From positions 4,686 to 68,685 of the forward strand of contig JBBTSM010000005.1 of assembly GCA_038064675.1 (NCBI GenBank): a stretch of DNA of 64,000 nucleotides, in the 5' to 3' direction. Positions 11,541-58,293 of the stretch are shown here, in pieces. This DNA is from Patescibacteria group bacterium (lineage in GTDB: Bacteria > Patescibacteriota > Patescibacteriia > UBA9934). Made by a program: the position numbers and the translations under genes. Each line of letters starts with the position of its first letter. Position 1 is the first letter of the stretch. The notes beneath the pieces were generated by a model. That model searched no databases. It was not told the origin of the DNA and saw nothing but the letters and a program-made list of their open reading frames with translations.

Positions 11541-14387
11541 ATGAAGGCGATGACCAAGGGCTCCCTTTTTAAAAATCTCATCCTTGGTGGTGTTGCCCTC
11601 CTTCTTTTAGGCGCACTCTCACTTTTCGTAGGATATCTTTGGATTAAGCAGACCCTACCTACCACCGAGGATATTTTGAATCGCGACGTTGCCCAATCTA
11701 CAAAAATCTACGACAGAACCGACACGCACCTCCTGTACGAAATCGCCGAAAGCGAGAAAAGAACCATCGTTCCCATTGAACAAATGCCCCAAAATCTCTT
11801 GAATGCCACCATTACCGCGGAAGACCGCCAATTCTACAATCATCACGGCATCAACTACCTCAGTATCGCTCGATCAATCTACGAGGACATTAAGTGCGGA
11901 TGCAAGGCACAGGGAGCCTCAACACTCACGCAACAAATGGTCCGTAACGTCATTCTTACGCTTGATAAAACCGTTACGCGCAAGGTGAAGGAGATTCTTT
12001 TGTCGTACGCGGTGGAGGACAAATTTACAAAGGAAGAAATTTTGAGTCTCTACCTCAATCAAATTGGATACGGAGGCGCGAACTACGGCGTGCAATCCGC
12101 AAGCCAGGCGTATTTTGGCAAAGACGTAAAAGACCTCTCTCTTGCAGAGTCCGCAACACTCGCAGCACTTCCAAAGCAGCCGAGTACCTACCTCAAAAAC
12201 GCCGACCGTCTCAAAGAGCGTCGTGATTGGATTTTGGAAAGCATGGAGGAACTTGGATATGCCACGCATGATCAAGTTGTTGCCGCAGAAGCAGAGGAAA
12301 CTCCAGTCGTCGCAAAACTCGGCAACATTACCGCTCCACATTTTGTGCTTTGGGTGAAAGACCAACTCGAAGCAACATACACAGAGCGCGAAGTGGAAAC
12401 CGGCGGACTTCACGTCGTCACCACGCTCGATTACGACAAGCAAATGGCCGCAGAAGCCGCAGTCACCGCAAATGTGGCAGCAAAGAGCGAAGCATACGGA
12501 TTCAACAACGCCGGGCTTCTTGCAATCGACCCAAAGACCGGACAAATTCTCGCAATGGTAGGAAGCGCGGATTATTTTAACGACGAAATTCAAGGTCAGG
12601 TAAACGTTACGGAACAGGCGCTCCAACCAGGAAGCAGCATGAAGCCGCTTATTTACGCCGCGTCGTGGGAAAAAGGCTACACGCCAAACACCATCCTTTG
12701 GGACGTTGATACCGTTATCCCAACAGAAACCGGCCCATACAACCCACACAACTTCGACAACGGCGAGCACGGCTATGTAACCATGCGAAAGGCGCTGCAA
12801 GGTTCCTTAAACATTCCTGCAGTAAAAGCGATGTATCTCGTTGGCGTCGATAGCGCCATTACCTTCCTTCAGCGTATGGGATACACCACGCTTGAGGATC
12901 GATCGCGTTTTGGACTTTCGCTCGTGCTTGGCGGCGGAGAGGTAACGATGATTGACCATCTTCGTGCATACGGCACATTCGCGAACAGCGGCATTCAACA
13001 AACAACCACAGGAATTCTCAAAGTCACCGACTCTACAGGCGCAACGCTCGAGGAGTGGAAGGTTGAAGAACATGCCGGTGCACAAATCGTAGACGCAAAC
13101 ATCGCAAATACCGTGAGTAACGTTCTCTCAGACAACAACGCCCGATCATACGTCTTCGGCGTGAACAGTGCTCTGCAACTCGGATCTCGACCAGTTGCGG
13201 CAAAAACAGGAACAACGAGCGATTTTAACGACGCGTGGACGATGGGATATACCCCGTCACTTACTGCGGGAGTTTGGGTAGGAAACACCGATGGAACAAA
13301 GATGTATAAAAATGCAGAAGCCGTCTTTGTTGCCGCGCCGATATGGAAGGAGTTCATGCAAAAGGCACTCGACGGTACACCGATCGAAGCTTTTCCAACG
13401 CCAACCATCGCGTCTACCGGAAAAGACATGCTCGACGGGAATATTCCAGTTCAGACATACACGATCGATACCAGCACCGGAAAACTTGCAAACGCCCTCA
13501 CGCCGGAACGATTTAAAGAAACGAAAACCTGTGGCGAGTATCACGATATTCTCATGTACGTCAGCAAAGACGATCCTCGCGGACCAATACCGGAAGACCC
13601 ATCCGCCGATCCGCAGTACCAAGTATGGGAAGACGCGGTGCAGGCGTGGATCACCAAACACAATGCAAATCTAAAACCTGGAGAAGTCGCAATCACCACA
13701 TGTAAAGACGTCCCGACCGAGAGCGATGATGTTCACACGTCACAGAATCAGCCGAGCATCAAAATTAGTTCCCCAACAAACGGAACATCCATCGGCCGGA
13801 CCATCACCACAACGCTCAATACATCTGTTCGCCGAACGTTCTCTCGCGTCGAATACACCATCGACGACGCGGTGGTGAATAGTAGTCACAACATGAACGG
13901 CGACATCTTCACGCTTCCAAGTTGGGTTACCAAAGGGAATCACACACTTCGCGCAACAATCTACGATGACGTGGACAATAACGCGAGCGATAGCATCACG
14001 ATCTCTATCAATGAATCAAGCGGTGGAGAGGCGCAGTTTCACATTACCAATCCATTCTCCAATCAAACCATCGACAACACCGGCGTGCCATACACGGTCG
14101 TCGTAGAAGTTCCGAACGTAAATGAAGTGACGTACCTCGAAGTTACTGCAGAAAATCTTTGGACCGGAGAAACAAAAATGATCGGGAGCACGACGCATCC
14201 GTCATCAATCACCAGTATTTCCTGGAACATCAGCGCCGACGCGCGATATCAACTCATTGCTCGGGCCTCAACGCCAACAGGCGGAACGCTCGAATCCAGT
14301 CCAGTGCTTGTTACCGTCACGACACCCGCACCGTTCGCCGGCACACCAATTGATAGCGTCCTTATTACTACGCCCACGACACTATAG
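11541..14387 (+). CDS. class A penicillin-binding protein (PBP1A, transglycosylase+transpeptidase) with long C-terminal Ig-like extension
   Basis: GT51 motifs EDRQFYNHHGIN, GASTLTQQ; TP motifs SSMKP, SLN, KTGTT; N-terminal TM; start set at ATG 11541 (MKAMTKG...), ORF opens 11436. Confidence 0.85.
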   Translation: MKAMTKGSLFKNLILGGVALLLLGALSLFVGYLWIKQTLPTTEDILNRDVAQSTKIYDRTDTHLLYEIAESEKRTIVPIEQMPQNLLNATITAEDRQFYNHHGINYLSIARSIYEDIKCGCKAQGASTLTQQMVRNVILTLDKTVTRKVKEILLSYAVEDKFTKEEILSLYLNQIGYGGANYGVQSASQAYFGKDVKDLSLAESATLAALPKQPSTYLKNADRLKERRDWILESMEELGYATHDQVVAAEAEETPVVAKLGNITAPHFVLWVKDQLEATYTEREVETGGLHVVTTLDYDKQMAAEAAVTANVAAKSEAYGFNNAGLLAIDPKTGQILAMVGSADYFNDEIQGQVNVTEQALQPGSSMKPLIYAASWEKGYTPNTILWDVDTVIPTETGPYNPHNFDNGEHGYVTMRKALQGSLNIPAVKAMYLVGVDSAITFLQRMGYTTLEDRSRFGLSLVLGGGEVTMIDHLRAYGTFANSGIQQTTTGILKVTDSTGATLEEWKVEEHAGAQIVDANIANTVSNVLSDNNARSYVFGVNSALQLGSRPVAAKTGTTSDFNDAWTMGYTPSLTAGVWVGNTDGTKMYKNAEAVFVAAPIWKEFMQKALDGTPIEAFPTPTIASTGKDMLDGNIPVQTYTIDTSTGKLANALTPERFKETKTCGEYHDILMYVSKDDPRGPIPEDPSADPQYQVWEDAVQAWITKHNANLKPGEVAITTCKDVPTESDDVHTSQNQPSIKISSPTNGTSIGRTITTTLNTSVRRTFSRVEYTIDDAVVNSSHNMNGDIFTLPSWVTKGNHTLRATIYDDVDNNASDSITISINESSGGEAQFHITNPFSNQTIDNTGVPYTVVVEVPNVNEVTYLEVTAENLWTGETKMIGSTTHPSSITSISWNISADARYQLIARASTPTGGTLESSPVLVTVTTPAPFAGTPIDSVLITTPTTL

Positions 14388-39160: not shown

Positions 39161-40087
39161 ATGGCAAAGGCGCTGAAGGATTTGATGAGGGAATTTTGTG
39201 AGTATCTCGAAATCGAGCGAGGAAGAAGTGATAAAACGACGAAGAATTATGCGTTTTATCTCCATCGGTTTGCGGAATGGGCGAAATGGCCGAATCCGGG
39301 GGAGATTGAGCTGGAAATGGTACGAAAGTATCGTTTGTATTTGAATCGAGAAATTGCGGGGCGCGACGAAGAGTCGTTGCAGAAGAACACGCAAAACTAT
39401 CACCTCATCGCGTTGCGGGCATTTTTGAAATACTTAGCGAAGCGCGATATTAAGACGCTGTCTGCCGATAAGATCGAGCTCGCAAAACAAGGCTCGCGGC
39501 ATGTGACATTCCTTGAACCAGAAGAGCTGACTCGATTTTTAACCGGACCCGATGGCGACGACTCATTGGTGGGGCTTCGCGACAAGGCAATTCTTGAACT
39601 CCTGTTTTCGACCGGACTTCGAGTCTCCGAGTGTGCCGGACTCCGAATCGACCAGGTGAATTTGAAGCGAGAGGAGTTCACGGTGAAGGGAAAAGGGAGC
39701 AAGCATCGTGTAGTTTTTCTCGCCGACGACGCGAAGCGCGCGCTGAAGGCGTATCTCGAACGTCGTCGCGACGTTTCCGATTATCTTTTCGTTCGTCACG
39801 ACCGTGCTCGTCACAACGTCGAATCCCCCGCCCCGCTTACACCGCGCTCCGTTCAGCGCATCGTCGATCGTTACGCCCGTCTCGCCGGCATCACAAAGGC
39901 CGTTACTCCCCACACGCTTCGTCATACATTCGCGACCGATCTTCTTCGCAACGGCGCAGACATCCGATCGGTCCAATCACTCCTCGGGCACGAATCCATC
40001 ACAACGACGCAGGTGTATACGCACATTACTGATAAAGAATTGAAGCGCGTGTATTCAAAGTTTCATGGGAAACAGAACGTGAATTGA
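39161..40087 (+). CDS. tyrosine site-specific recombinase XerC/XerD family
   Basis: 308 aa; N-terminal SAM-like core-binding, catalytic R..HxxR..Y: HTLRHTFATDLL, LLGHESITTTQVYTH. Confidence 0.8.
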   Translation: MAKALKDLMREFCEYLEIERGRSDKTTKNYAFYLHRFAEWAKWPNPGEIELEMVRKYRLYLNREIAGRDEESLQKNTQNYHLIALRAFLKYLAKRDIKTLSADKIELAKQGSRHVTFLEPEELTRFLTGPDGDDSLVGLRDKAILELLFSTGLRVSECAGLRIDQVNLKREEFTVKGKGSKHRVVFLADDAKRALKAYLERRRDVSDYLFVRHDRARHNVESPAPLTPRSVQRIVDRYARLAGITKAVTPHTLRHTFATDLLRNGADIRSVQSLLGHESITTTQVYTHITDKELKRVYSKFHGKQNVN

Positions 40088-46447: not shown

Positions 46448-46524
46448 GACCTCGTAGCTCAACTGGATAGAGCAGGTCCGTCCTAAGGACAAGGTTGCAG
46501 GTTCAACTCCCGCCGAGGTCACCA
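46448..46524 (+). tRNA. tRNA-Arg (CCT), with G27:A43 and A51:C63 non-canonical pairs
   Basis: GACCTCGTAGCTCAACTGGATAGAGCAGGTCCGTCCTAAGGACAAGGTTGCAGGTTCAACTCCCGCCGAGGTCACCA. Confidence 0.6.
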
Positions 46525-46840: not shown

Positions 46841-46916
46841 GGGCTTGTAGCTCAGTTGGTAGAGCGCTGCATTCGCATTGCAGAGGCCAGCGGTTCGAAT
46901 CCGCTCAGGTCCACCA
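46841..46916 (+). tRNA. tRNA-Ala (CGC) with G3:U70
   Basis: GGGCTTGTAGCTCAGTTGGTAGAGCGCTGCATTCGCATTGCAGAGGCCAGCGGTTCGAATCCGCTCAGGTCCACCA. Confidence 0.85.
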
Positions 46917-47240: not shown

Positions 47241-47444
47241 TTGCAGGTGTCGGCTTGGGTGTTGATAAGCGACAATATCCGCGCCAGTATTTGTCTACAC
47301 CAGGCTACACGATAGATATAGTTTGTACTTATCACGTTTTATAAACAGGGTTATCCATCTTTTATCCACAGTTTACGAAAGTTAGCCATGTTTTTCGATG
47401 CTTGTTGACGCCTTTTTGTGTTCATCATCGTGTATCATTGTGTT

Positions 47445-48365
47445 ATGGGTATGTGGTTGAAAAAGGTTAGTTTGCTAATATTAGCGCTTTTCTTTGCGCT
47501 TCATTTGAATTTTGCCTCTGCGGCGATGACGTCGACGAACTATCAAATTCAATGGGACGAGCTTTCATCTGGCGGCGGTGACGCATCTTCATCTTCCTAT
47601 AATATTCGCGACAGCACGGCTGGTTCTGCAGCCGGAAGCAGAACAACCTCTTTAAGTTATGGGATCGATCAGGGTTTTCGGGCCGGTGTGTATGATCCGG
47701 TCGTCGACTTTGTTCCCTACGTGCAGGATCGGAGTACACAAGTTGCTGCGACAGCGTTCGCTTCAAATACAGTTACCGTGACGACAGCGGCGGGGTTCTC
47801 TGTAGGTGACTGGATCGTTATTATTCAAGACGAAGGAGCGTCTCAGGTTGCCGCAATGGGTCAGATTTCTGGAATTTCGGGCTCGGATATTACGATCCGT
47901 TCCTCATATTCTGGAAATACTCCCACCATTGATGGAACAAACGATCTTGTGTACCGGATGTCTCCTACAGCGTCGAATGCATTGGGAACACTTTCTTCAT
48001 CTGTTGTTACAACACAAATCGTTGGTTGGGTTGCCTCCGCGGACGTTTCGCAGGGATTTGGAGTATATGCTTTCGTTGATGGCCTTTTGCAGTCGGAATC
48101 AGCCACACTTGCTGGTGTTGTTGATGGTAGCGTTACGGCGGGTAACAGTGAATACGGCGCTCGGTCTTCAGACGCATCGCTCGCAACGTCCACATTTGAT
48201 ACGGAAGACACGGCGTTCTCAACGGAACCGGTACTTGTTGGCAGTACATCGATCTCGTCATTCAACAGCAGCGGCTTTCTTACGTTGAAAGCAGCAATAT
48301 CTGCAACGCAAAACGGTGGAAGCTACGCACAAACACTTACAACGATTTTTGTTGGAGATTACTAG
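47445..48365 (+). CDS. secreted protein with signal peptide, Ser/Thr/Gly-rich (cell-surface cluster gene 1)
   Basis: MGMWLKKVSLLILALFFALHLNFASAA signal; ORF opens 47418 with GTG. Confidence 0.55.
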   Translation: MGMWLKKVSLLILALFFALHLNFASAAMTSTNYQIQWDELSSGGGDASSSSYNIRDSTAGSAAGSRTTSLSYGIDQGFRAGVYDPVVDFVPYVQDRSTQVAATAFASNTVTVTTAAGFSVGDWIVIIQDEGASQVAAMGQISGISGSDITIRSSYSGNTPTIDGTNDLVYRMSPTASNALGTLSSSVVTTQIVGWVASADVSQGFGVYAFVDGLLQSESATLAGVVDGSVTAGNSEYGARSSDASLATSTFDTEDTAFSTEPVLVGSTSISSFNSSGFLTLKAAISATQNGGSYAQTLTTIFVGDY

Positions 48366-48423: not shown

Positions 48424-49266
48424 ATGGTTGGGAACATACACGGCTCTATTGTTCGATATGCGGCTGGCATTGCGCTCGCGCTGTTTGGCATTCCTTCGCT
48501 GTCTTTTGCTGCGTCGCTTCCTGCGACTCGTGATGTTGTTGTTGCTCCAGGATCAACGGTCGATGTTGAAATTCCGATAACAAATTCTGGACCTGCCGAC
48601 ATCGACTTTTCGTTACTGTTGTTGTCCGCATCGTTTCAGCCAGGAGTTGAACAGCCTCAGCTCGAACAACTTTCTCCTGCGTTTACTTCGTGGATTACAC
48701 TTTCTTCTTCATCTATTTTCGTTCCATCTGGCGCATCGCTTCCCGTAATGCTTGCGGTACATCCGCCGGAAAACGCCTTGTCTCAAACGGTCACTCTCGC
48801 TGTTGTTGCTGCTGAAAAACTTGATGGCGATATTTCGCTGATTCATGGCTCTGCGGCGCTGGTATTCGTGAGCGTTGGCGATGTATCGCCACAGGGTTCT
48901 TGTGAATCGTTCGTTCAAAGTCCTTCCGGCGAAGGGCGTGTCTCTCTATCGAACAGTGGGCGCGGTATACTGTATGACAATGGTGAGATTATTCTTCGCG
49001 GAATGTTTGGTATCCGCTTAGGGAGCACATCGAGTAATCCGCTATTTCATCGGGTTCCGCCAGGACAAACTCGGACGTGGCAGGTTTCTTTGCCAACGAT
49101 TCCGTGGTGGGCGATGGGTTCATTTTCGTACTCCTTGCGCGACGCGCAGCTTAGCGAACATCCCTGTGCCGATATTGATGCTGGCACGCGCTGGTTGCCG
49201 CTGTTTGGTATAGGAATCGCGGCGTTCGGTGTGGTGACGCTGTGTATTCGACGACGTATTTCATGA
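48424..49266 (+). CDS. secreted protein with C-terminal TM anchor (DUF916/chaperone-like topology)
   Basis: signal peptide AAGIALALFGIPSLSFAA; C-terminal WLPLFGIGIAAFGVVTLCIRRRIS; stop overlaps next start (ATGA). Confidence 0.55.
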   Translation: MVGNIHGSIVRYAAGIALALFGIPSLSFAASLPATRDVVVAPGSTVDVEIPITNSGPADIDFSLLLLSASFQPGVEQPQLEQLSPAFTSWITLSSSSIFVPSGASLPVMLAVHPPENALSQTVTLAVVAAEKLDGDISLIHGSAALVFVSVGDVSPQGSCESFVQSPSGEGRVSLSNSGRGILYDNGEIILRGMFGIRLGSTSSNPLFHRVPPGQTRTWQVSLPTIPWWAMGSFSYSLRDAQLSEHPCADIDAGTRWLPLFGIGIAAFGVVTLCIRRRIS

Positions 49267-51743
49267 GGAGAACATTGCAAAAACTTCTGTACACTGTCCT
49301 TGCTGCGTCGGCGATTTTTTTTCCGTTTGCGACGTTTGCTACTACGGTAACCGACGTTACAGATCAGGTCTCTTCGTCACAGATTTCTGTTGGGTCAAAT
49401 CATAAATTTATTCTTACGCTCGCCGATACGTTTTCTGAAGGCGAGACGATGCAATTTGTTTTTCCGACGGGGTTTATTCTATCGTCATTCACAGAAAACG
49501 ATATTGATATCACCGATGACGGCGTTGATTTGCTTACTGATGCCGATTGCAGTGGATCTGATCATGCGTCGATTGGAATTTCGGGCCAGACTGTTACGTT
49601 GACTATTTGTGCCGGAGATGGCGGAGCTGTTGCAAGTGGAAGCGTTGTGACTGTTGAAATGGGAACGAATGCGTCTTCTTCAGGATCCGGCATTCACCAG
49701 ATTACGAATCCGTCGTCTGCTGGTTCCTGGTTTGTAAATCTTACTGGGACGAGCGGAAATTCAGGTTCAGTTATTCTCGCAACGTCAACGAATGGCGGTG
49801 CCGGCGTGAGCGCGACTGTTCCTTCGTCGGACACGCCACCCGAACCGCCAACAGACCCGGGGGGTGATCATTGTTCGTTAAGTCATGGTGATTCATGTAC
49901 GTCATCTGAGAATTCGTGCGGCATGACAAACTCTGGATCGATTTTTTGCGATGGAAGTTGTTCTGCCTCGGCGCCGGGCGACGACGAATGCCCAGAAACG
50001 TGCAGTGCAAGCGAGGGCGATTTTTGTTCTTCCTCGGCAAATTCGTGTGGTATGACGAATAGCGGGACTATTGCATGCGATGGAAGCTGTTTGGTTTCAA
50101 TACCAAGCGAAAGTGAATGTCCAGAAACGTGCAGCGCAAGCGAGGGTTCGAGCTGCACCTCGTCCGCAAACTCTTGTGGTATGACGAACAGTGGAACTAT
50201 CGGATGTAGCGGAGACTGTTCAGCAAACGCCCCTGATAACGATCTTTGTCCAACAACATCGTGTAGTGCCAGCGAAGGAAGTGGCTGTACGAGCTCTTCG
50301 AATTCGTGCGGCATGACGAATACTGGATCGATTGGGTGCAGCGGAAGCTGCTCGGCGAGCGCACCATCGGATTCTCTTTGTTCAGCAGACGGATCCTGCG
50401 TTCTTGATGAAGGCGATTCATGTACGAGCTCTTCGAATTCGTGCGACATGACGAATACCGGAACCGTGGCGTGCAGTGGCGAATGCTCTGCAACGGGCCC
50501 CTCCGACGATTTGTGTAGTTCCATAACGGGATCCTGTGTCGAGGATGAGGGGAATGTGTGCACGACCCTTGCAAACTCGTGCGGCATGACGAATGCGGGA
50601 ACTATTGCGTGTAGCGGTGAGTGTTCCGCTGAAACTCCTTTGGATACGTTGTGCGGTGCGGTACCGGTGTCTTCTGGATCGAACGGAAGTACCACGGCAC
50701 CCTCGAATCCAGGTTCCTCGCCGGAATCGCCCACCACGTCGTCGGGATCTTTTATTGAAATAGTTGCAAACATCTCTACAACTCTTGAAGATATTCGTAT
50801 CGTTCCTGAGGTTCAACGCGCAATCACTATCGCGATTCCTGTTGCGATTGTCGCTTCAATAATAACCGCGATTGGTCTTGCCACATCGTTTGGTCTTTTA
50901 TCCTATCTCCAATTCCTTTTTACCTCTCCATTTTTGTTCTTTGCTCGCAGGAAACGGAAAGCGTACGGAGTTGTGTATAACGCGATGACGAAGGTTTGTG
51001 TCGAACTTGTGACAGTACGGTTATACGACGCCACGTCGAATCGTTTAATGCGTTCAATGGTTACTGACGCACGGGGAAGATACTTTTTTATTGCAAATCC
51101 TGGTCAATATCGAATAGGTGTTGCGGCTCAGCATTTTGCTTTTCCAAGCACATACTTACAGAATGTGAAAGATGATGGTGTGTATCTTGATGTGTACACC
51201 GGGCAAACGATTGAGGTAACGGAAAAAGATGCAACCATTGCGGCGAATATTCCACTTGATCCGCTGGAATTATCGGTATCATTTACACAGAAGATCCTTG
51301 TGCGTCGACGATTCTTGCGACAATTTCAGCTTGTTCTCTCTATTTCTGGCGTTCTCTTGTCGATTCCGGTGTGGTTCCTAAAACCATCGTTGATGACTGC
51401 ACTTCTTGCAATAAGTCAGGGTATTGTATTCCTTCTTTTTTGGCGACTTGCACAACCACGTCGCCCACGCGGTTGGGGCATTGTTTTTGACTCATCAAAT
51501 CATCGGCCTGTGGGCAACGCCGTCGTGCGTCTCTTTGAACCGAAGTATAATAAACTCGTCGAAACAACGCTGACGGATAGTCTCGGTCGGTACAGTTTCT
51601 TTGTTGGCCCGAACGAATATTTTGTTCAAGCAAATAAAGAGGGTTTCGACGAGCATATTGTTCGTCCAATCGACTATCGGCAGAAAACAGAACCCGATGC
51701 CATCGCGATCGATGTTCCGTTGACGCCAACAACACCAGTATGA
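49263..51743 (+). CDS. membrane-anchored surface protein with six tandem 43-aa six-Cys repeats and two carboxypeptidase-regulatory-like domains
   Basis: signal MRRTLQKLLYTVLAASAIFFPFATFA; repeats CSASEGxxCxSSxNSCGMTNxGxIxCxGxCSAxxPxDxxCPxT; TM helices; VRLYDATSNRLMRSMVTDARGRYFF and VVRLFEPKYNKLVETTLTDSLGRYSFFV. Confidence 0.6.
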   Translation: MRRTLQKLLYTVLAASAIFFPFATFATTVTDVTDQVSSSQISVGSNHKFILTLADTFSEGETMQFVFPTGFILSSFTENDIDITDDGVDLLTDADCSGSDHASIGISGQTVTLTICAGDGGAVASGSVVTVEMGTNASSSGSGIHQITNPSSAGSWFVNLTGTSGNSGSVILATSTNGGAGVSATVPSSDTPPEPPTDPGGDHCSLSHGDSCTSSENSCGMTNSGSIFCDGSCSASAPGDDECPETCSASEGDFCSSSANSCGMTNSGTIACDGSCLVSIPSESECPETCSASEGSSCTSSANSCGMTNSGTIGCSGDCSANAPDNDLCPTTSCSASEGSGCTSSSNSCGMTNTGSIGCSGSCSASAPSDSLCSADGSCVLDEGDSCTSSSNSCDMTNTGTVACSGECSATGPSDDLCSSITGSCVEDEGNVCTTLANSCGMTNAGTIACSGECSAETPLDTLCGAVPVSSGSNGSTTAPSNPGSSPESPTTSSGSFIEIVANISTTLEDIRIVPEVQRAITIAIPVAIVASIITAIGLATSFGLLSYLQFLFTSPFLFFARRKRKAYGVVYNAMTKVCVELVTVRLYDATSNRLMRSMVTDARGRYFFIANPGQYRIGVAAQHFAFPSTYLQNVKDDGVYLDVYTGQTIEVTEKDATIAANIPLDPLELSVSFTQKILVRRRFLRQFQLVLSISGVLLSIPVWFLKPSLMTALLAISQGIVFLLFWRLAQPRRPRGWGIVFDSSNHRPVGNAVVRLFEPKYNKLVETTLTDSLGRYSFFVGPNEYFVQANKEGFDEHIVRPIDYRQKTEPDAIAIDVPLTPTTPV
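49872..50658 (+). repeat. in-frame tandem DNA repeat, 6 x ~129 bp, encoding Cys-rich modules
   Basis: repeat units directly visible in nucleotide and protein sequence. Confidence 0.85.
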
Positions 51744-54700
51744 GGAGGGAGGGTCGTTCGGTGAATTCCATCCGTTCACTCGCAAAGCGCTTCTTTGCGA
51801 GCTTTGTGTTTGCGTGCGTGTTGGTTGGAACCGGATATGCTGGACTAGTTCGCGTGCAGGCCGCGGCGACGCCACCGAGGATTGTCATGTACCAGGGGCG
51901 GCTATTGAATAGCAACGGCGTTCCGGTTTCTGATGCAACAGCAAGTATTTCATTTGCACTTTACGATGCGGCGAGCGCCGGAACATGTTTATGGTCGAAT
52001 AATTCTCCTACATGCGCATCGGTTGTTGCGCGAACGGTTACGCTTACGTCCGGTCTTTTTTCAGAGGCGCTTGGCGATACTGCCGCGGCTACTCCGTATT
52101 CTGCAATTGCTTCGACAGTTTTTTCAAATAATGCCTCCGTATATCTTGAAGTCATCGTGAATGGCGAGACACTTGTGCCACGAAAGGCAATGCTTTCTGC
52201 GCCATATGCGATGAATTCAGATTCAGTTGACGGATACGATACCTCGCTTGTTGGTGCAACATCTTCCGTGGTTCCAATCACGGACACTAACGGAAATCTT
52301 GTCATTACTGGTTCGCCGCAAGGAACCGGTGTGAGCCAGGCGTCGTTATATATCAATCCCGCTACTGGTGTTGTCGCGGCAAACGAAATCCTTCTTGGTG
52401 TTGCAGTAAGCGACGCCTCTCGATTCTCTATAGACGCTGAAGGTGACAGTGTACTTTTGGGTAATCTTGCCGTGAATGGTGGAGGAATCTCTTCGTCATC
52501 GGCACTCGCAATCACTTCCAGTGGTGGCGACATTAGCTTCGGTCCAAATGGAACCGGCTTGGTCTATGTTACTGCCGGGGACGACTTTGCCGTTGGGGGC
52601 ACGTCTCTTGTGTCCCCTTTTTCCATCGATGAAAGTGCAAATACACTCCGTATCGGTGATGGCACAAGTGACGCGAACGATCCAACTATTACATTTTACG
52701 CTTCAGATGCGACTGACAGTGGTTCGTTGAGCTATAGCGATAGTGATACATTTTCCTTTACTGGTGGAAACTTCTCGCATGTTGGTCTTGGAACCATGCC
52801 AACAGCTCCGTTGAGTGCTCGCGCAGACCACGATATTTTTTCAACATTTAGCGGAACTTCGCCTGACGGATACGTGCTGAATCAGCTGTACACCCTGCGT
52901 GCCAGAACGACGTACACAGGAATGAATGGATCGTCTTCGAGCAATCTTGTGGGGGGATCGTCGTCCTTTTTAACCATTGACGGCGAGACAACGACGCTTG
53001 CGGATGGAATTGGGTTTTTCTCTCAAGTAACAAACACCGCGTCTACCGCGTCCCTTCTTGATCTTGGCGGCTTTCTTGCGGGTATTGATTCTAGTGTTTT
53101 GCAATCCGGAGGACAGACAATCGCGACCGGTTACGGAATTTACGGTCATATTGGGAGTTCTGGGGGTACATTTACTAATGGCATTGCGGTGTATGGGGTG
53201 GTTACTTCTGGAGCAGGAAGTTTTACAACGGGTTACGGAGGTAAATTTGTGGATACAACGGAGGGAACGACTCGGTATGGTGTTTACGGTGACGCTTCCG
53301 GTGGAACAAACAATTATTCCGGATATTTTACGGGTGCGGCGCTGCAGGTTGATGATGACTCCACACCAGATGCTGCTGGATTCGCAACGGCGGCCGGCGA
53401 CATTTACGCCGTGGGAACCATTGAAGCAGATGGGAGTGCATACTTCGGTGACTCAACCGGAACCGACACGTTTACTTTTACATCCGCACAAACAACGGGA
53501 ACATCGATGACCGTTACATCTCCTGCTTTAACAACTGGAGTCGGAATGAAAATTGTAAGAGCCTCTGGCGGCGCTGATTACGATGGAAGTCTTTTACAGG
53601 TATTGCAACAAAACACTTCTGCAACGAGCGATGCTGTGGCGGTGAGTATTGTGAATTCGGCCGCAGGAAGTTCAACAGCAATGTGGATTTCCCAGGATTC
53701 AACTGGAGCTCATGTGCCAAATCAGATCGTACACGCAATCATCGGCATTGACACAAATGAAACTGGAAGTAGTGACGACGCAATTGTGTTCCGTTCGGAT
53801 GCAGACGGCACGCCGGATACAGAATTCCGTGTTACGACCGCTGGTGATGCATTCGTCGACGGTGCATTTACTGGCGCGGGTGCTGACTTTGCGGAATTTT
53901 TCCCCACGGCGGATACTGCGCTTGGGGACCAGGATATTGTGTGTTTGGACGGTGCTCTTGCAAAGAACGTAAAGCGTTGCGACGCCGGTGAGACAAATAT
54001 TGTTGGCGTCGTCTCGACGAATCCAGCATTTATTGGAAACAATATTGGCGATGGTACAGAGGATTATCGAGGAAACTCTCGTTATCGATTGGTTGGTTTA
54101 ATCGGACAGATCGATACAAAGGTAAGTACAGCAAACGGTCCAATTGCGGTTGGAGATCCTATTTCAACATCGTCATCACTTGCGGGATATGGATCGAAAG
54201 CGCATGGTCCGGTGCGTATTGTGGGTTTCGCTCTGCAGTCGCTTTCAAGTGGTACGGGCGTGATTCGCGTGTTGGTAAGTCCGCAATGGTATGGTGGAGA
54301 CGTGTTGACGGCGACGGGATCCGCAACGCAGGTTGCGGGAAGTCTGGCGATTGCTGCGACGACTGCCGCAACGGCAACAACGACCGTGGTCGATTCCGGA
54401 ACGCTTTCTCTTCGAGGCTCTGCATGGGCTGGAGGGTCGGCACAAATCATTGGGATGTCGTTGAAGACCGCGGTAAGCGCAGTGAATGATTATCGACTGT
54501 CTGTTGCGAATAGTATTGGTACAGAGGTTGCGTCAGTGAACCAGTCTGGAGACCTTGCTATTGCCGGTCGTCTCTATCCGTCTGATCGTGGCGCATCGCA
54601 GAAGAGTAAGTATATTTATTACGACGGATCGTCGGGATCTGGCGGAGACTTCATGCGTACAAATTCTGCGGGTTGGGCAACGGGTTCGTACGATTTTGCG

Positions 54701-55942
54701 GAAATGTTCCCATCGCCTGATGTGCTAATGCCAGGAGAAATTGTGGTCTTTGGTGATGCGAGCCAGCAAGTAAAACGTTCAACGGGCAAGGCCTATAGTC
54801 AAACCATTGCCGGAATCGTTTCAACGCGCCCAGGATTTTTGGCTGGTGAAAATCGCTCGGGCAACTATCCGATCGCTCTTGCTGGTCGTGTTCCAACATT
54901 GGTTTCTACCGAGAATGGCGCGATCAATATCGGCGATCCTCTTACGACGTCGACGCATCCTGGCTATGCCATGAAAGCAACAGAGGCCGGGCCCATTCTT
55001 GGATATGCCGCTGAATCGTTTTCTGGATCCATGGGCAGCGTTGTTGTGTATGTGAATGTTTCGTATTACAGCGGCGCGCCTGTAACCGAAGGCCCAGCAG
55101 CGGATAATTTTATTTCTCAGCTCACGCAGGATATCGAGAACTTTGATACCGCGGGAACGCTCAACTTTAACGGCGGACAGCTCCTCGCGATTGGATCGAT
55201 GACGAGTGCGAATGGAACATGGCGCTTGGAAAGCGATGGCGATCTTGTAACGTCTGGTCGGTTGGTTGAGCTTGTCCGTTCTGCGCAAGGAACCGATGTT
55301 GAAACATACGCCGCAACGTCGCGACAAATGACGGTGCAACTTTCCGGAACGGTGACGTTGGTGAACGGTCATGCCGATGTCCATTTTGTGGATGTTGACC
55401 CTTCATTTGTTGACGTTGTTGATACGAACCCGACCTATCGAGCATTGGTCACTCCATACGGAGCAACCGGCGCACTCTATGTGACGAATCGAACAGTTCA
55501 TGGATTCTCTATTACGGAATCTGGCGCGGCATCGAATGGAGTTTCTGTGGACTGGTTGGTGATTGCAACACGCCGTGATTACGCTCCAACGGCTATTCCA
55601 ACCATTCCTATTGTTTCATCGACTCCAACATCGGCCATCGATCTCAGTCCAGACTCCGATGCTGCGGTGTCTTCCGACGCGCTGGCACCATTGAGCGAAT
55701 CCGGATCGGAAACGAGCGATATTGTTTCGGTGGTTGATTCGATTGTTCCAGATACGACATCGGATGGAATTGTGGATGCAGCAATCGCTCCAGACGCGGG
55801 ATCTGATACTGTTGTTTCTGATGCGCCAGCCGTAGAAGCATCGACTCCTGCGGAAGCACCGAGTATCCCGGATGTGCTCGCTTCTGAGCCTTCGGCTCCA
55901 GCACCAAGCGCAGATTCCTCAGGCGGTGAGGTGTCCCCATAA
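51740..55942 (+). CDS. giant (1400 aa) Gly/Ser/Thr-rich surface/fibre-like protein with N-terminal membrane anchor
   Basis: ATG overlaps upstream stop (ATGA); N-terminal TM FFASFVFACVLVGTGYAGLV; low-complexity acidic C-terminus. Confidence 0.6.
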   Translation: MRREGRSVNSIRSLAKRFFASFVFACVLVGTGYAGLVRVQAAATPPRIVMYQGRLLNSNGVPVSDATASISFALYDAASAGTCLWSNNSPTCASVVARTVTLTSGLFSEALGDTAAATPYSAIASTVFSNNASVYLEVIVNGETLVPRKAMLSAPYAMNSDSVDGYDTSLVGATSSVVPITDTNGNLVITGSPQGTGVSQASLYINPATGVVAANEILLGVAVSDASRFSIDAEGDSVLLGNLAVNGGGISSSSALAITSSGGDISFGPNGTGLVYVTAGDDFAVGGTSLVSPFSIDESANTLRIGDGTSDANDPTITFYASDATDSGSLSYSDSDTFSFTGGNFSHVGLGTMPTAPLSARADHDIFSTFSGTSPDGYVLNQLYTLRARTTYTGMNGSSSSNLVGGSSSFLTIDGETTTLADGIGFFSQVTNTASTASLLDLGGFLAGIDSSVLQSGGQTIATGYGIYGHIGSSGGTFTNGIAVYGVVTSGAGSFTTGYGGKFVDTTEGTTRYGVYGDASGGTNNYSGYFTGAALQVDDDSTPDAAGFATAAGDIYAVGTIEADGSAYFGDSTGTDTFTFTSAQTTGTSMTVTSPALTTGVGMKIVRASGGADYDGSLLQVLQQNTSATSDAVAVSIVNSAAGSSTAMWISQDSTGAHVPNQIVHAIIGIDTNETGSSDDAIVFRSDADGTPDTEFRVTTAGDAFVDGAFTGAGADFAEFFPTADTALGDQDIVCLDGALAKNVKRCDAGETNIVGVVSTNPAFIGNNIGDGTEDYRGNSRYRLVGLIGQIDTKVSTANGPIAVGDPISTSSSLAGYGSKAHGPVRIVGFALQSLSSGTGVIRVLVSPQWYGGDVLTATGSATQVAGSLAIAATTAATATTTVVDSGTLSLRGSAWAGGSAQIIGMSLKTAVSAVNDYRLSVANSIGTEVASVNQSGDLAIAGRLYPSDRGASQKSKYIYYDGSSGSGGDFMRTNSAGWATGSYDFAEMFPSPDVLMPGEIVVFGDASQQVKRSTGKAYSQTIAGIVSTRPGFLAGENRSGNYPIALAGRVPTLVSTENGAINIGDPLTTSTHPGYAMKATEAGPILGYAAESFSGSMGSVVVYVNVSYYSGAPVTEGPAADNFISQLTQDIENFDTAGTLNFNGGQLLAIGSMTSANGTWRLESDGDLVTSGRLVELVRSAQGTDVETYAATSRQMTVQLSGTVTLVNGHADVHFVDVDPSFVDVVDTNPTYRALVTPYGATGALYVTNRTVHGFSITESGAASNGVSVDWLVIATRRDYAPTAIPTIPIVSSTPTSAIDLSPDSDAAVSSDALAPLSESGSETSDIVSVVDSIVPDTTSDGIVDAAIAPDAGSDTVVSDAPAVEASTPAEAPSIPDVLASEPSAPAPSADSSGGEVSP

Positions 55943-55953
55943 CATTCCTTCGT

Positions 55954-58293
55954 ATGGTTTTTGATGCAGAGCGAATGCTCCGAGCACTTGTTCGGAAGTC
56001 TTTCGAGGCACTCGTACTCGTCACGCCGATCCTTGCGCTTCCATGGACGGTGGATCCGCTCGATGTGAATAAGCAAACATTCTTTTTCATTATTGTTGCG
56101 GTCATGTGCGTTGCGTGGCTTGGTGAGGCGCTGTATTCACGACGCATCGTGTTGCGTGCCGACATTCTTTGGCTCCCTTTTCTCGTGTGCATCCTTTGCA
56201 TTGCAGTATCTGCCGGGATATCGCACGAGGCCTACACAAGTCTTTTTGGGCAGGCAAATCAGGAATATACCAGCGCCGTTACCTTCGCATTGATGCTTGG
56301 AATGGCCGGTGTTGGCGCGCATGTTCTCGATAATCGAGGACAGCATCGCGTGCTCTTGTTCTCGTTGATTGGCTCGTCAATTGTGGGCCTCTGTGCGATG
56401 GCCGCATTTTTCGGTGTAACGTTTGGTCGACTTCCAACGAACGTTGTTGGCACGCCAAATGCACTTATTGTGTACCTGCTCGCAATGACGATTCTTGGGT
56501 GCGGCGCGTTGATTGTCTCTGATGCATCGCACAAGCGATCAGAGCGTATGGTACTGAACATCGCAACGGTTGTGACAACCATTACTACAGTTGTATCGCT
56601 TCTTGCTATTGATTACAGCGTACTTTGGGGACTTGCATTGTTTGGAAGCGTTTCGCTTTTCGCGCTAGCCGCAGTGCGTTCGGAACTTCTTATCAGACCG
56701 GGTCGATATATTTTACCGATGTTGCTTTGTGTATCGTCACTGTTTTTCTTGGTTCTTCCGAGTGTGATCGCAAGTCCATTTCCAACAGAAGTGTCTTTGA
56801 GTACGAAAAGCACGTGGGACGTGACGACTGCAGCGTGGAGCAACGGAGCGTGGGCTTTTGGAACTGGCCCGGGAACATTTGCGATGACCTTTGCACGATA
56901 TCATTCAGCGGATTTGAATTCTTCAGGATTTTGGGATACACGGTTCGATCGTGGATCATCTGCGGTGCTGACGATGTTTTCTACACTGGGAATCCTCGGT
57001 ACGCTCGCACTTATCGCGTCACTCTTTTTTCTTGGGTTCCGCATGCTTCGAGCGTACGCAAAGAATGTTCCATCGGAAATGCTTCCTATTGCTGCAGCAT
57101 GGATGGTGTTGGTTGCTGCGCTATTCGTGTATCCTCAAAATTTCACTCTCATGACGATGCTGTGGGTGCTTACGGCACTTGTGCTCCGTTCTGCGCTTTC
57201 TTCCGGGAAGACTTTGGCATTTGAACGTTCGCCACGTGCAGGTTTTGGTGCGGCATTTGCTTTTGTTCTGTGTGCGGTGTTCGTTTTGACAGTGGCATTC
57301 TCTACCATTTCTCGATATCGAGCCGAAGTTGCGTTTGCACAGGCCGTCACGATTGATCATCAGGGCGGTGATATCGACGATGTTATCGCGAGGCTTGATA
57401 CTGCAGCAACCGCGAATCGCTGGAGCGATCTGTATTACCGAAACCTTGGAAGCGCGTTGCTGCATAAGGTTATTACCGTTGCCCAGGGTGCTCATGCAGA
57501 TCCGGAACTCGTAAAGTCATTCATTGGTGCGGCGGTGAATGCTGGCGTGCGTGCAACCGACCTTGGCCCAACGAATGTCACGAACTGGGAGCTACGCGGG
57601 GACATCTATCGTGAAGTTTCGCCATTGATCACCGATGCGGCCCAGTTCGCTATCGCGTCGTACGATCAAGCTATTGCACTCGCGCCGAATAATCCGCGAT
57701 ATCGGGTAGATTCTTCTCGTGGATATTTGGCGCTTGCCGATTTACTCGCGCCAATGGTGAAGGGTGACGACGTTGATGTGGCAAAACAGGCAAAGACTGC
57801 GCAAGATATTGCATTGCAGAGCGCGAATGATTCTTTGATGAAAGCGATTGAGCTCAAGTCAGATTACGCTGAGGCTCGCTATTACCTTGCGTTCGTTCAG
57901 GAACGACAAGGGAAGCTTGCAGAGGCAGTCGCGAGTATGGAGATTGTTCGCGGCTCTGCGCCAAGCGATGTCGGGGTCGGCCTACAGCTTGCATTGCTCT
58001 ACTTACGCCAGGGAAAGAATGACGTTGCAAAACAGGAACTTGAGCGCATCATCGCCATTTCGCCAAACTTCGCCAACGCACATTGGTACCTTGCATCGGT
58101 TCTCGAACAAGAAAAAAATATCGACGGCGCAATTATCGAACTGGAAACGATCGCGAAGCTTGATCCAGCGAATGAAACCGTTCAGAAAAAGATTGATGAG
58201 TTGAAAGCAGGAAAGAAAGCGGCAACACCAATTCCAGATCCATTGCCCACGGAAGAATCTTCAACACTTCCGGACGCGCCAGTAACACCATAA
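55954..58293 (+). CDS. O-antigen-ligase-like (Wzy_C) polytopic membrane protein fused to C-terminal TPR repeats
   Basis: ~11 TM helices over first ~470 aa, then TPR-like repeats (AEARYYLAFVQERQGKLAEA, GVGLQLALLYLRQGKNDVAKQEL, ANAHWYLASVLEQEKNIDGAI). Confidence 0.7.
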   Translation: MVFDAERMLRALVRKSFEALVLVTPILALPWTVDPLDVNKQTFFFIIVAVMCVAWLGEALYSRRIVLRADILWLPFLVCILCIAVSAGISHEAYTSLFGQANQEYTSAVTFALMLGMAGVGAHVLDNRGQHRVLLFSLIGSSIVGLCAMAAFFGVTFGRLPTNVVGTPNALIVYLLAMTILGCGALIVSDASHKRSERMVLNIATVVTTITTVVSLLAIDYSVLWGLALFGSVSLFALAAVRSELLIRPGRYILPMLLCVSSLFFLVLPSVIASPFPTEVSLSTKSTWDVTTAAWSNGAWAFGTGPGTFAMTFARYHSADLNSSGFWDTRFDRGSSAVLTMFSTLGILGTLALIASLFFLGFRMLRAYAKNVPSEMLPIAAAWMVLVAALFVYPQNFTLMTMLWVLTALVLRSALSSGKTLAFERSPRAGFGAAFAFVLCAVFVLTVAFSTISRYRAEVAFAQAVTIDHQGGDIDDVIARLDTAATANRWSDLYYRNLGSALLHKVITVAQGAHADPELVKSFIGAAVNAGVRATDLGPTNVTNWELRGDIYREVSPLITDAAQFAIASYDQAIALAPNNPRYRVDSSRGYLALADLLAPMVKGDDVDVAKQAKTAQDIALQSANDSLMKAIELKSDYAEARYYLAFVQERQGKLAEAVASMEIVRGSAPSDVGVGLQLALLYLRQGKNDVAKQELERIIAISPNFANAHWYLASVLEQEKNIDGAIIELETIAKLDPANETVQKKIDELKAGKKAATPIPDPLPTEESSTLPDAPVTP

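Follow-up and report, generated by a model that had tools for sequence, protein, structure and literature searches.

The window analysed here is a stretch of 64,000 nucleotides (nt) from a Patescibacteria group bacterium (GenBank assembly GCA_038064675.1, contig JBBTSM010000005.1, positions 4,686 to 68,685 of the forward strand). It holds a five-gene operon, g1 to g5, whose third gene, g3, encodes a membrane-anchored protein with an array of cysteine-rich repeats (Table 1). The g3 product has 833 amino acids (aa) when read from the GTG at 49242, or 826 aa when read from the ATG at 49263, and the ATG is likely the start. This ATG overlaps the stop codon of g2 as ATGA (49263-49266), and the g3 stop codon TGA (51741-51743) overlaps the ATG of g4 within a second ATGA (51740-51743), so translational coupling of g2, g3 and g4 is expected. 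The initial annotation of this DNA had placed the array between a secreted N-terminal domain and a C-terminal region with transmembrane (TM) helices and two CarboxypepD_reg sandwiches, and the flanks found here agree with that layout.

Table 1. Features of g3 and of the other operon genes (window coordinates).
Feature	Coordinates	Strand	Remarks
g3, repeat-bearing gene	49263..51743	+	open reading frame 49242..51743 opens at GTG 49242
Putative signal peptide, aa 8-34, MRRTLQKLLYTVLAASAIFFPFATFAT	49263..49343	+	hydropathy; N-terminal helix in model
Conserved N-terminal beta-rich ectodomain (head), aa 35-195	49344..49826	+	
Replaceable stalk cassette (Cys array and short Ser/Thr/Pro linkers)	49827..50733	+	DNA homology break
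Cys6 unit 1, aa 211-253	49872..50000	+	
Cys6 unit 2, aa 254-296	50001..50129	+	
Cys6 unit 3, aa 297-340	50130..50261	+	
Cys6 unit 4, aa 341-385	50262..50396	+	
Cys6 unit 5, aa 386-431	50397..50534	+	
Cys6 unit 6, aa 432-474	50535..50663	+	last Cys at aa 471
First hydrophobic region, aa 522-561: TM helix and interfacial helix, then invariant RRKRK	50805..50924	+	hydropathy, model
Transthyretin-like / CarboxypepD_reg / SdrD_B beta-sandwich 1, aa 576-672	50967..51257	+	
TM helical hairpin, aa 683-737, with RRR and RRPR clusters on its flanks	51288..51452	+	hydropathy, model
CarboxypepD_reg beta-sandwich 2, aa 747-825	51480..51716	+	
g1, secreted 315-aa protein	47418..48365	+	apparent distant relative of Pam pilus pilins
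g2, 280 aa: signal peptide, Ig-like domains, C-terminal TM helix	48424..49266	+	
g4, 1400-aa fibre-like protein	51740..55942	+	weak Bdello_MAT_N and Peptidase_G2 IMC matches
g5, 779 aa, polytopic (at least 10 TM helices), C-terminal TPR repeats	55954..58293	+	conserved operon member

The array consists of six in-phase tandem units at nt 49872-50663. Each unit has six cysteines spaced as C-x7-C-x6-C-x9-C-x3-C-x9-C, around the core CTSxxNSCGMTNxGTIxCxGxCSAxxP. The six tandem six-cysteine units of the initial annotation, with their consensus and coordinates, agree with the translation, but the units are not uniformly 43 aa long and vary from 43 to 46 aa. Pairwise identity between the units is 49-70% for amino acids and 49-64% for nucleotides. 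Because the nucleotide identity is not above the amino-acid identity, these values indicate that the units are old duplications held similar at the protein level by purifying selection. The same annotation had described DNA repeats of about 129 bp with high nucleotide identity, which would be prone to copy-number variation, and neither description was borne out. Tandem Repeats Finder reported just 1.8 copies with 75% matches, and the longest exact repeat within the array is 25 nt. Together with the low nucleotide identity, this makes the array a poor substrate for slippage or assembly collapse. Consistently, the unit copy number is stable, not variable, among the Cys-type orthologues: the 11 orthologues with 52-61% stalk identity carry six units each, except for seven in L025. 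When the units of the window were compared one by one with those of the orthologues, all pairs were 42-74% identical and no diagonal was seen.

The probability that the array is an artefact, either a collapsed or expanded repeat of the assembly or a non-coding stretch, is negligible. Two facts could be read as signs of such an artefact: a tandem repeat lies here in sequence derived from a metagenome, and a long reading frame in antisense (296 aa, 49883-50773, minus strand) is open across the array too, with its repeats in step with the sense units. The antisense frame is most likely a by-product of the repeat and not a gene. Assembly collapse, which the initial annotation had raised as a possible undoing of its claim, is argued against by the Logan assembly of SRR34292212, in which a short independent contig (L083) is 100% identical to window positions 50235-51764 and thereby covers units 3-6. 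Moreover, the six units all differ from each other, orthologues from unrelated samples hold six or seven in-frame units with conserved flanks, and old duplications under purifying selection are not what an artefact would leave.

A repeat profile built from 67 units (alignment A1) was searched against 1.84 billion proteins. It matched 636 cluster representatives at E ≤ 1e-3, with 331 matches at E ≤ 1e-10 and 76 at E ≤ 1e-30, and the proteins carry tandem arrays of 1-21 units. In the 67-unit alignment C10, N15, C17, G23, C27 and C31 are invariant, and the non-cysteine residues S12, N15, G18, G23, A33 and P36 are nearly invariant across very distant proteins. The family core, repeated in tandem, is C-x-S-x2-N-x-C-G-x4-G-x3-C-x-G-x-C-x-A-x2-P, and the g3 array fits it. 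Most family members have a 36-aa core unit with four cysteines, and P-x-x-(Y/L)-G linkers connect the units. The variant in the window has six cysteines, owing to one additional cysteine at either end (C1 and C6). Elsewhere in the family the extra C1 tends to mark the opening unit of an array and the extra C6 its closing unit, and single units often have both; this placement fits a bracketing disulfide.

The same module is found in unrelated proteins, for example in P0021 at E 3e-62, and such matches mean that the repeat is not a product of chance. The carriers are secreted multidomain proteins in which the module stands among PKD, Big_9, CBM96, TSP1/TSP3, dockerin and CARDB domains, and bona fide TSP1 domains adjoin the repeat in the Patescibacteria proteins P0026, P0077 and P0101. 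Six of the seven records with a named source organism belong to Candidatus Paceibacterota, Parcubacteria or 'Patescibacteria group'. When the whole g3 protein and the array alone were scanned by hmmscan with Pfam-A and NCBIfam, no family was placed on aa 205-480 at E ≤ 1, and no Pfam model lay over the repeat in the other repeat-rich proteins either. The repeat profile had 0 matches among PDB sequences at E ≤ 10, Foldseek against PDB and BFVD returned no match for the module (best E 0.8), and no description of the repeat was found in the literature. Matches of repeat proteins to the SPRTN zinc domain were rejected as 11-residue noise. The module had not been recognised by the initial annotation either, and the negative searches bear this out. 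The repeat is a real, previously unnamed cysteine-rich family without a curated or solved counterpart.

In the AlphaFold model of units 1-3, the mean predicted local distance difference test score (pLDDT) is 88.7 and the predicted template modelling score (pTM) is 0.34, so that the units are confident and their relative angle is undefined. The full-length model likewise gives confident units with undefined inter-unit orientation. The six units would thus be small, independently folded mini-domains arranged as beads on a string and braced by disulfides, whose presence and pairing we infer.

Alternatively, the cysteines could bind a metal (Zn, Cu or Fe-S), and the array would be a metal-binding or redox-active surface element for anoxic habitats. 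Uhrbacteria, the lineage to which the window belongs (see below), come mostly from anoxic groundwater and sediment according to the record titles, some repeat-bearing proteins have MopE-type Cu-binding motifs elsewhere, and no Dsb-like gene lies in the window. However, the spacing of x7, x6, x9, x3 and x9 contains no CxxC or CxxH knuckles and there is no conserved His, whereas the even cysteine counts (4 or 6) and the tendency of C1 to come first and C6 last fit disulfides. AlphaFold also folds the unit confidently without metal, and a DsbA-like gene is present near a repeat protein in the contig L082. Metal binding is accordingly regarded as very improbable. L082 is another Patescibacteria contig, on which (12034-12753) a DsbA/thioredoxin-like gene and a PMT-family glycosyltransferase were observed within a few kb of the repeat-rich protein P0023. 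This context would fit proteins of this kind being oxidatively folded and glycosylated in Patescibacteria.

Orthologues were scanned with one genome per species. Relatives of g3 were detected in at least 108 species, nearly all labelled Candidatus Uhrbacteria or Patescibacteria/Parcubacteria. By these labels, the lineage of the window is Candidatus Uhrbacteria (Parcubacteria group) and not Saccharibacteria, with whose cultured members the initial annotation had proposed a comparison of surface proteins. Many loci with full operon synteny (L002, L005, L011-L013 and others) are titled 'uncultured Gammaproteobacteria bacterium' as Third Party Annotation (TPA) metagenome-assembled genomes, and one is titled 'Methylococcaceae'; these titles look like taxonomic mislabels or mis-binned contigs.

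The g3 family is composed of the conserved N-terminal head, a hypervariable middle and the conserved C-terminal module. The middle segment varies from 135 to 736 aa among about 76 orthologues. Cys arrays were found only in the window and in L001, L002 and L025, to which the fragment L005 and the metagenomic orthologues P0002-P0009 can be added. The relatives closest by their flanking genes (L003, L004, L009 and L008, with RmuC 88-96% identical and 96% in L003) carry about 155-190 aa of Thr/Pro/Glu or Asp/Thr/Pro low complexity at the stalk position, and the deeper lineages have two or three FN3 domains, a different Cys repeat and an extra sandwich there. In L036, L059, L037 and other deep loci, a CG(D/N)GxC-x3-E-x4-SCPxDC repeat occupies part of the stalk beside FN3; it is a second cysteine-rich spacer solution in the g3 family. 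At the DNA level, the window and L003 are collinear to 49826 and again from 50734, with no homology between. The same is seen among the closest relatives L003, L004 and L009, in which homology with the window ends at about 49826 and restarts at about 50734.

When the window was compared with linker-type proteins, the head was 70-81% and the anchor 66-74% identical. Compared with the other Cys-type proteins, the head was 53-68%, the anchor 57-68% and the stalk 52-61% identical. Because the flanks of the window are nearer to the linker-type proteins and its stalk is no more similar to the other Cys stalks than the flanks are, a history in which an ancestral Cys stalk was replaced by linkers in sister lineages would fit better, as the simpler one, than a recent import. 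Recent horizontal import of the Cys cassette was not favoured, since the stalk identity of 52-61% is not above the flanking 53-68%. Whichever way it arose, the stalk segment appears to behave as an exchangeable spacer cassette.

These results point to the six units as a stalk, braced by disulfides and resistant to proteases, by which the distance of the head from the membrane would be set, a reading to which we give a probability of about 0.6. It is drawn from the position of the array, the beads-on-a-string model, the use of the module as a linker of variable number elsewhere and, above all, the replacement in orthologues. A stalk role had been proposed in the initial annotation, and it is the best supported of its functional suggestions, since orthologues swap exactly the array segment for Thr/Pro/Glu linkers or FN3. 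Together with the short Ser/Thr/Pro linkers, the units would make up the extracellular stalk by which a conserved envelope protein of Uhrbacteria keeps its beta-rich head away from the membrane. The job of the stalk would be distance and robustness rather than specific recognition, because other Uhrbacteria use linkers or FN3 arrays at the same position.

The repeats may instead be the adhesive part of the protein, as lectin-like, peptidoglycan-binding or host-binding modules placed in tandem for avidity, which corresponds to the adhesin module suggested in the initial annotation. This is unlikely, though clearly less so than metal binding. It would be in keeping with the strong conservation of non-cysteine positions in distant proteins, with a copy number that varies from 1 to 21 in other proteins as it does for carbohydrate-binding modules, and with the presence of CBM96, PKD and TSP1 alongside the module in extracellular proteins. 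In contrast, close orthologues swap the whole array for disordered Thr/Pro/Glu linkers or FN3 while head and anchor are kept, so that the core role of g3 would not depend on any binding by the array. The conserved Gly, Asn, Ser, Pro and Ala are typical turn and packing residues of a mini-domain, and neither an aromatic platform nor an acidic cluster is conserved.

The head has invariant residues across at least 70 species (N53, H54, D87, D89, C103, C123, N156 and P157). It matched no known family, NCBIfam model or PDB sequence, and showed no similarity to g1 or to any Pam model. The head was also considered as a Pam-type pilin domain, which was rejected because hhalign aligned the signal peptides only and no NCBIfam or PDB matches were obtained. 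In the membrane module, hydropathy and the model place the first TM helix at about aa 522-549, with a short helix after it, and the helices of the hairpin at aa 683-713 and 717-737. Sandwich 1 follows the first TM helix and sandwich 2 follows the hairpin. PF13620 (CarboxypepD_reg) scored 49.2 bits against a cut-off of 32.3 on two stretches, aa 585-651 and 746-812, and not on the repeats. Foldseek with the whole model gave solely C-terminal matches, to carboxypeptidase D transthyretin-like domains and to SdrD B/CnaB domains.

Both sandwiches have invariant K/R clusters at their flanks (RRKRK at 569-573, RRR at 690-692 and RRPR at 741-744). On the basis of these clusters and the positive-inside rule, both C-terminal sandwiches are probably cytoplasmic. 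The initial annotation had treated them as part of the surface protein, and the positive-inside rule would move them to the other side of the membrane. The transthyretin-like (CarboxypepD_reg) fold is normally extracytoplasmic, and a location on the cytoplasmic side is unusual. The g3 protein would then be anchored by three TM helices and bear two transthyretin-like sandwiches in the cytoplasm.

The order g1, g2, g3, g4 and g5 is kept in most of 81 related loci, and the operon lies downstream of holA and RmuC. Since the RmuC/holA synteny is conserved, nothing points to a mobile element as the carrier of the operon. Two tRNA genes, tRNA-Arg(CCT) at 46448-46524 and tRNA-Ala(CGC) at 46841-46916, lie immediately upstream of the operon, and a tyrosine recombinase of the XerC/D type (39161-40087) is about 7 kb upstream. 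After the operon, a sulfatase/lipoteichoic acid (LTA)-synthase-like gene (PF00884, 58302-59783) stands alone: none of the 81 related loci has a counterpart of it, and the gene is an insertion specific to this lineage.

In the g1 family, NF058579 PamT was matched by 39 of 41 members (best E 5e-17) and NF058581 CPR_Pam_pilin_C by 23 of 41 (best E 1e-10), in both cases below the curated cut-offs; the window copy reached 29 bits against a cut-off of 240. The g1 protein thus appears to be a distant Pam relative and not an equivalog. A WxL domain in the g1 family was considered and rejected, since PF13731 matched none of the 41 members at E ≤ 0.05, and the Pfam scan found no PF13731 in g3 or g4. The g2 family profile matches Enterococcus faecium WxLIP1 (PDB 9i25/9i1y) with E 2.6e-9, and Pfam WxLIP_PGBD is touched by 8 of 39 g2 family members, with no Pam match of g2 in NCBIfam. 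WxLIP proteins are composed of DUF916, DUF3324 and a TM helix (Hassan et al. 2023, PMC10599100). PamC and PamD are membrane-anchored Pam chaperones (bioRxiv 10.64898/2026.03.03.709456), and the architecture of g2 is alike, which suggests that the Pam chaperones PamC/PamD and the Firmicute WxLIP proteins may be related. The operon also suggests a minimal Pam-like system in Uhrbacteria, outside the lineages reported for Pam.

The g4 protein weakly matches two domains, the N-domain of the mosaic adhesive trimer fibre of Bdellovibrio and the intramolecular chaperone domain (IMC) of Peptidase_G2. Between species, the length of its orthologues runs from 1010 to 2613 aa, and in the middle of g4 (about 52412-54104) DNA homology to the close relatives is lost. 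A tail-fibre-like gene co-localised with Pam was described in the Pam paper (bioRxiv 10.64898/2026.03.03.709456).

With the products of g1, g2 and g4, g3 may form the membrane base or anchor of a surface appendage system related to Pam and WxL, as gene order and translational coupling suggest. Both the spacer function and the anchor role are inferred, and several points weigh against them. The near-invariance of S12, N15, G18, G23, A33 and P36 could reflect a binding site and not only turns. The disulfides are assumed, and no DsbA-like gene or thioredoxin CxxC was found in the window, although 64 kb is too little for this absence to be informative. The matches of g1 and g2 lie under the curated family cut-offs. 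Similarity of the head to Pam pilins or to PamR was not detectable, so that gene order is what speaks for the anchor role. The initial annotation had named g3 as a candidate host-attachment protein of an epibiont. Such a function of g3 is doubtful, because a host-range determinant would not be expected to keep invariant residues over at least 70 species, as the conserved head of g3 does; the hypervariable g4 would be a better candidate for a host-specific adhesin than g3. A more far-reaching and quite tentative proposal, somewhat less improbable than adhesive repeats, combines these elements. The repeat would then represent a novel disulfide-rich fold, one mostly restricted to Patescibacteria, and g3 would serve as the transmembrane base of an unrecognised Pam/WxL-related appendage universal in Uhrbacteria. 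The pilin or fibre would dock on the conserved head, the exchangeable stalk would determine how far the protein reaches across the envelope, and the pair of transthyretin-like domains in the cytoplasm would connect the appendage with the inside of the cell.

Patescibacteria presumably lead a life attached to other cells, and to our knowledge almost nothing is known of their surface machinery outside Saccharibacteria. Registering the cysteine-rich module as a domain family would improve the annotation of several hundred Patescibacteria surface proteins now called 'hypothetical', and the module implies oxidative protein folding in the envelope of the organisms that carry it. The five-gene operon conserved across Uhrbacteria would link the newly described Pam pilins to Firmicute WxLIP-like proteins. 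In addition, g3 is a natural experiment in which one protein has three unrelated stalk designs, and it can be used for testing how the envelope-spanning distance is set.

Extracellular cysteine-rich tandem spacers are a familiar kind of element; the sequence family and its predicted fold lack a curated or solved counterpart, and its carrier and operon had not been described before in Uhrbacteria. EGF-like and thrombospondin type 1 (TSP1) modules, both of the eukaryote type and in bacterial copies, resemble the g3 array in being extracellular beads of about 40 aa with 4-6 cysteines that serve as rigid spacers. The g3 repeat differs from them in its distinct cysteine spacing and its NSCGxTNxGT core, and has no Pfam, NCBIfam, PDB or Foldseek match.

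PamR has been proposed as an RbmA-like membrane anchor for the CPR (candidate phyla radiation) Pam pilus (Troman et al. 2026, bioRxiv 10.64898/2026.03.03.709456). Like PamR, g3 is membrane-anchored, has a beta-sandwich ectodomain and stands in an operon with an apparent distant relative of Pam-type pilins and a membrane-anchored Ig-fold protein that may be chaperone-like, and near both lies a tail-fibre-like gene. In contrast, PamR consists of two FN3 domains and one C-terminal TM helix, whereas g3 has a novel head, a Cys stalk, three TM helices and two transthyretin-like domains, and no homology of g3 to PamR or the Pam models was detectable. Pam was reported mainly in Saccharimonadia and Microgenomatia (bioRxiv 10.64898/2026.03.03.709456), while the g3 operon is in Uhrbacteria. 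The WxL/Csc clusters of Firmicutes (PMC10599100) are, like g1-g5, operons of secreted surface proteins, and g2 shares the N-terminal Ig domain of WxLIP and its C-terminal TM anchor. However, PF13731 detected no WxL domain among the g1 family members, and the WxL clusters have no counterpart of g3. Gram-positive wall-spanning spacers (Pro/Thr-rich regions and SdrD B repeats) set length and are exchangeable with low-complexity linkers, as is seen among g3 orthologues. They differ from g3 in that its spacer is an array of disulfide-rich mini-domains, and its SdrD_B/CnaB-like folds are in the C-terminal membrane module.

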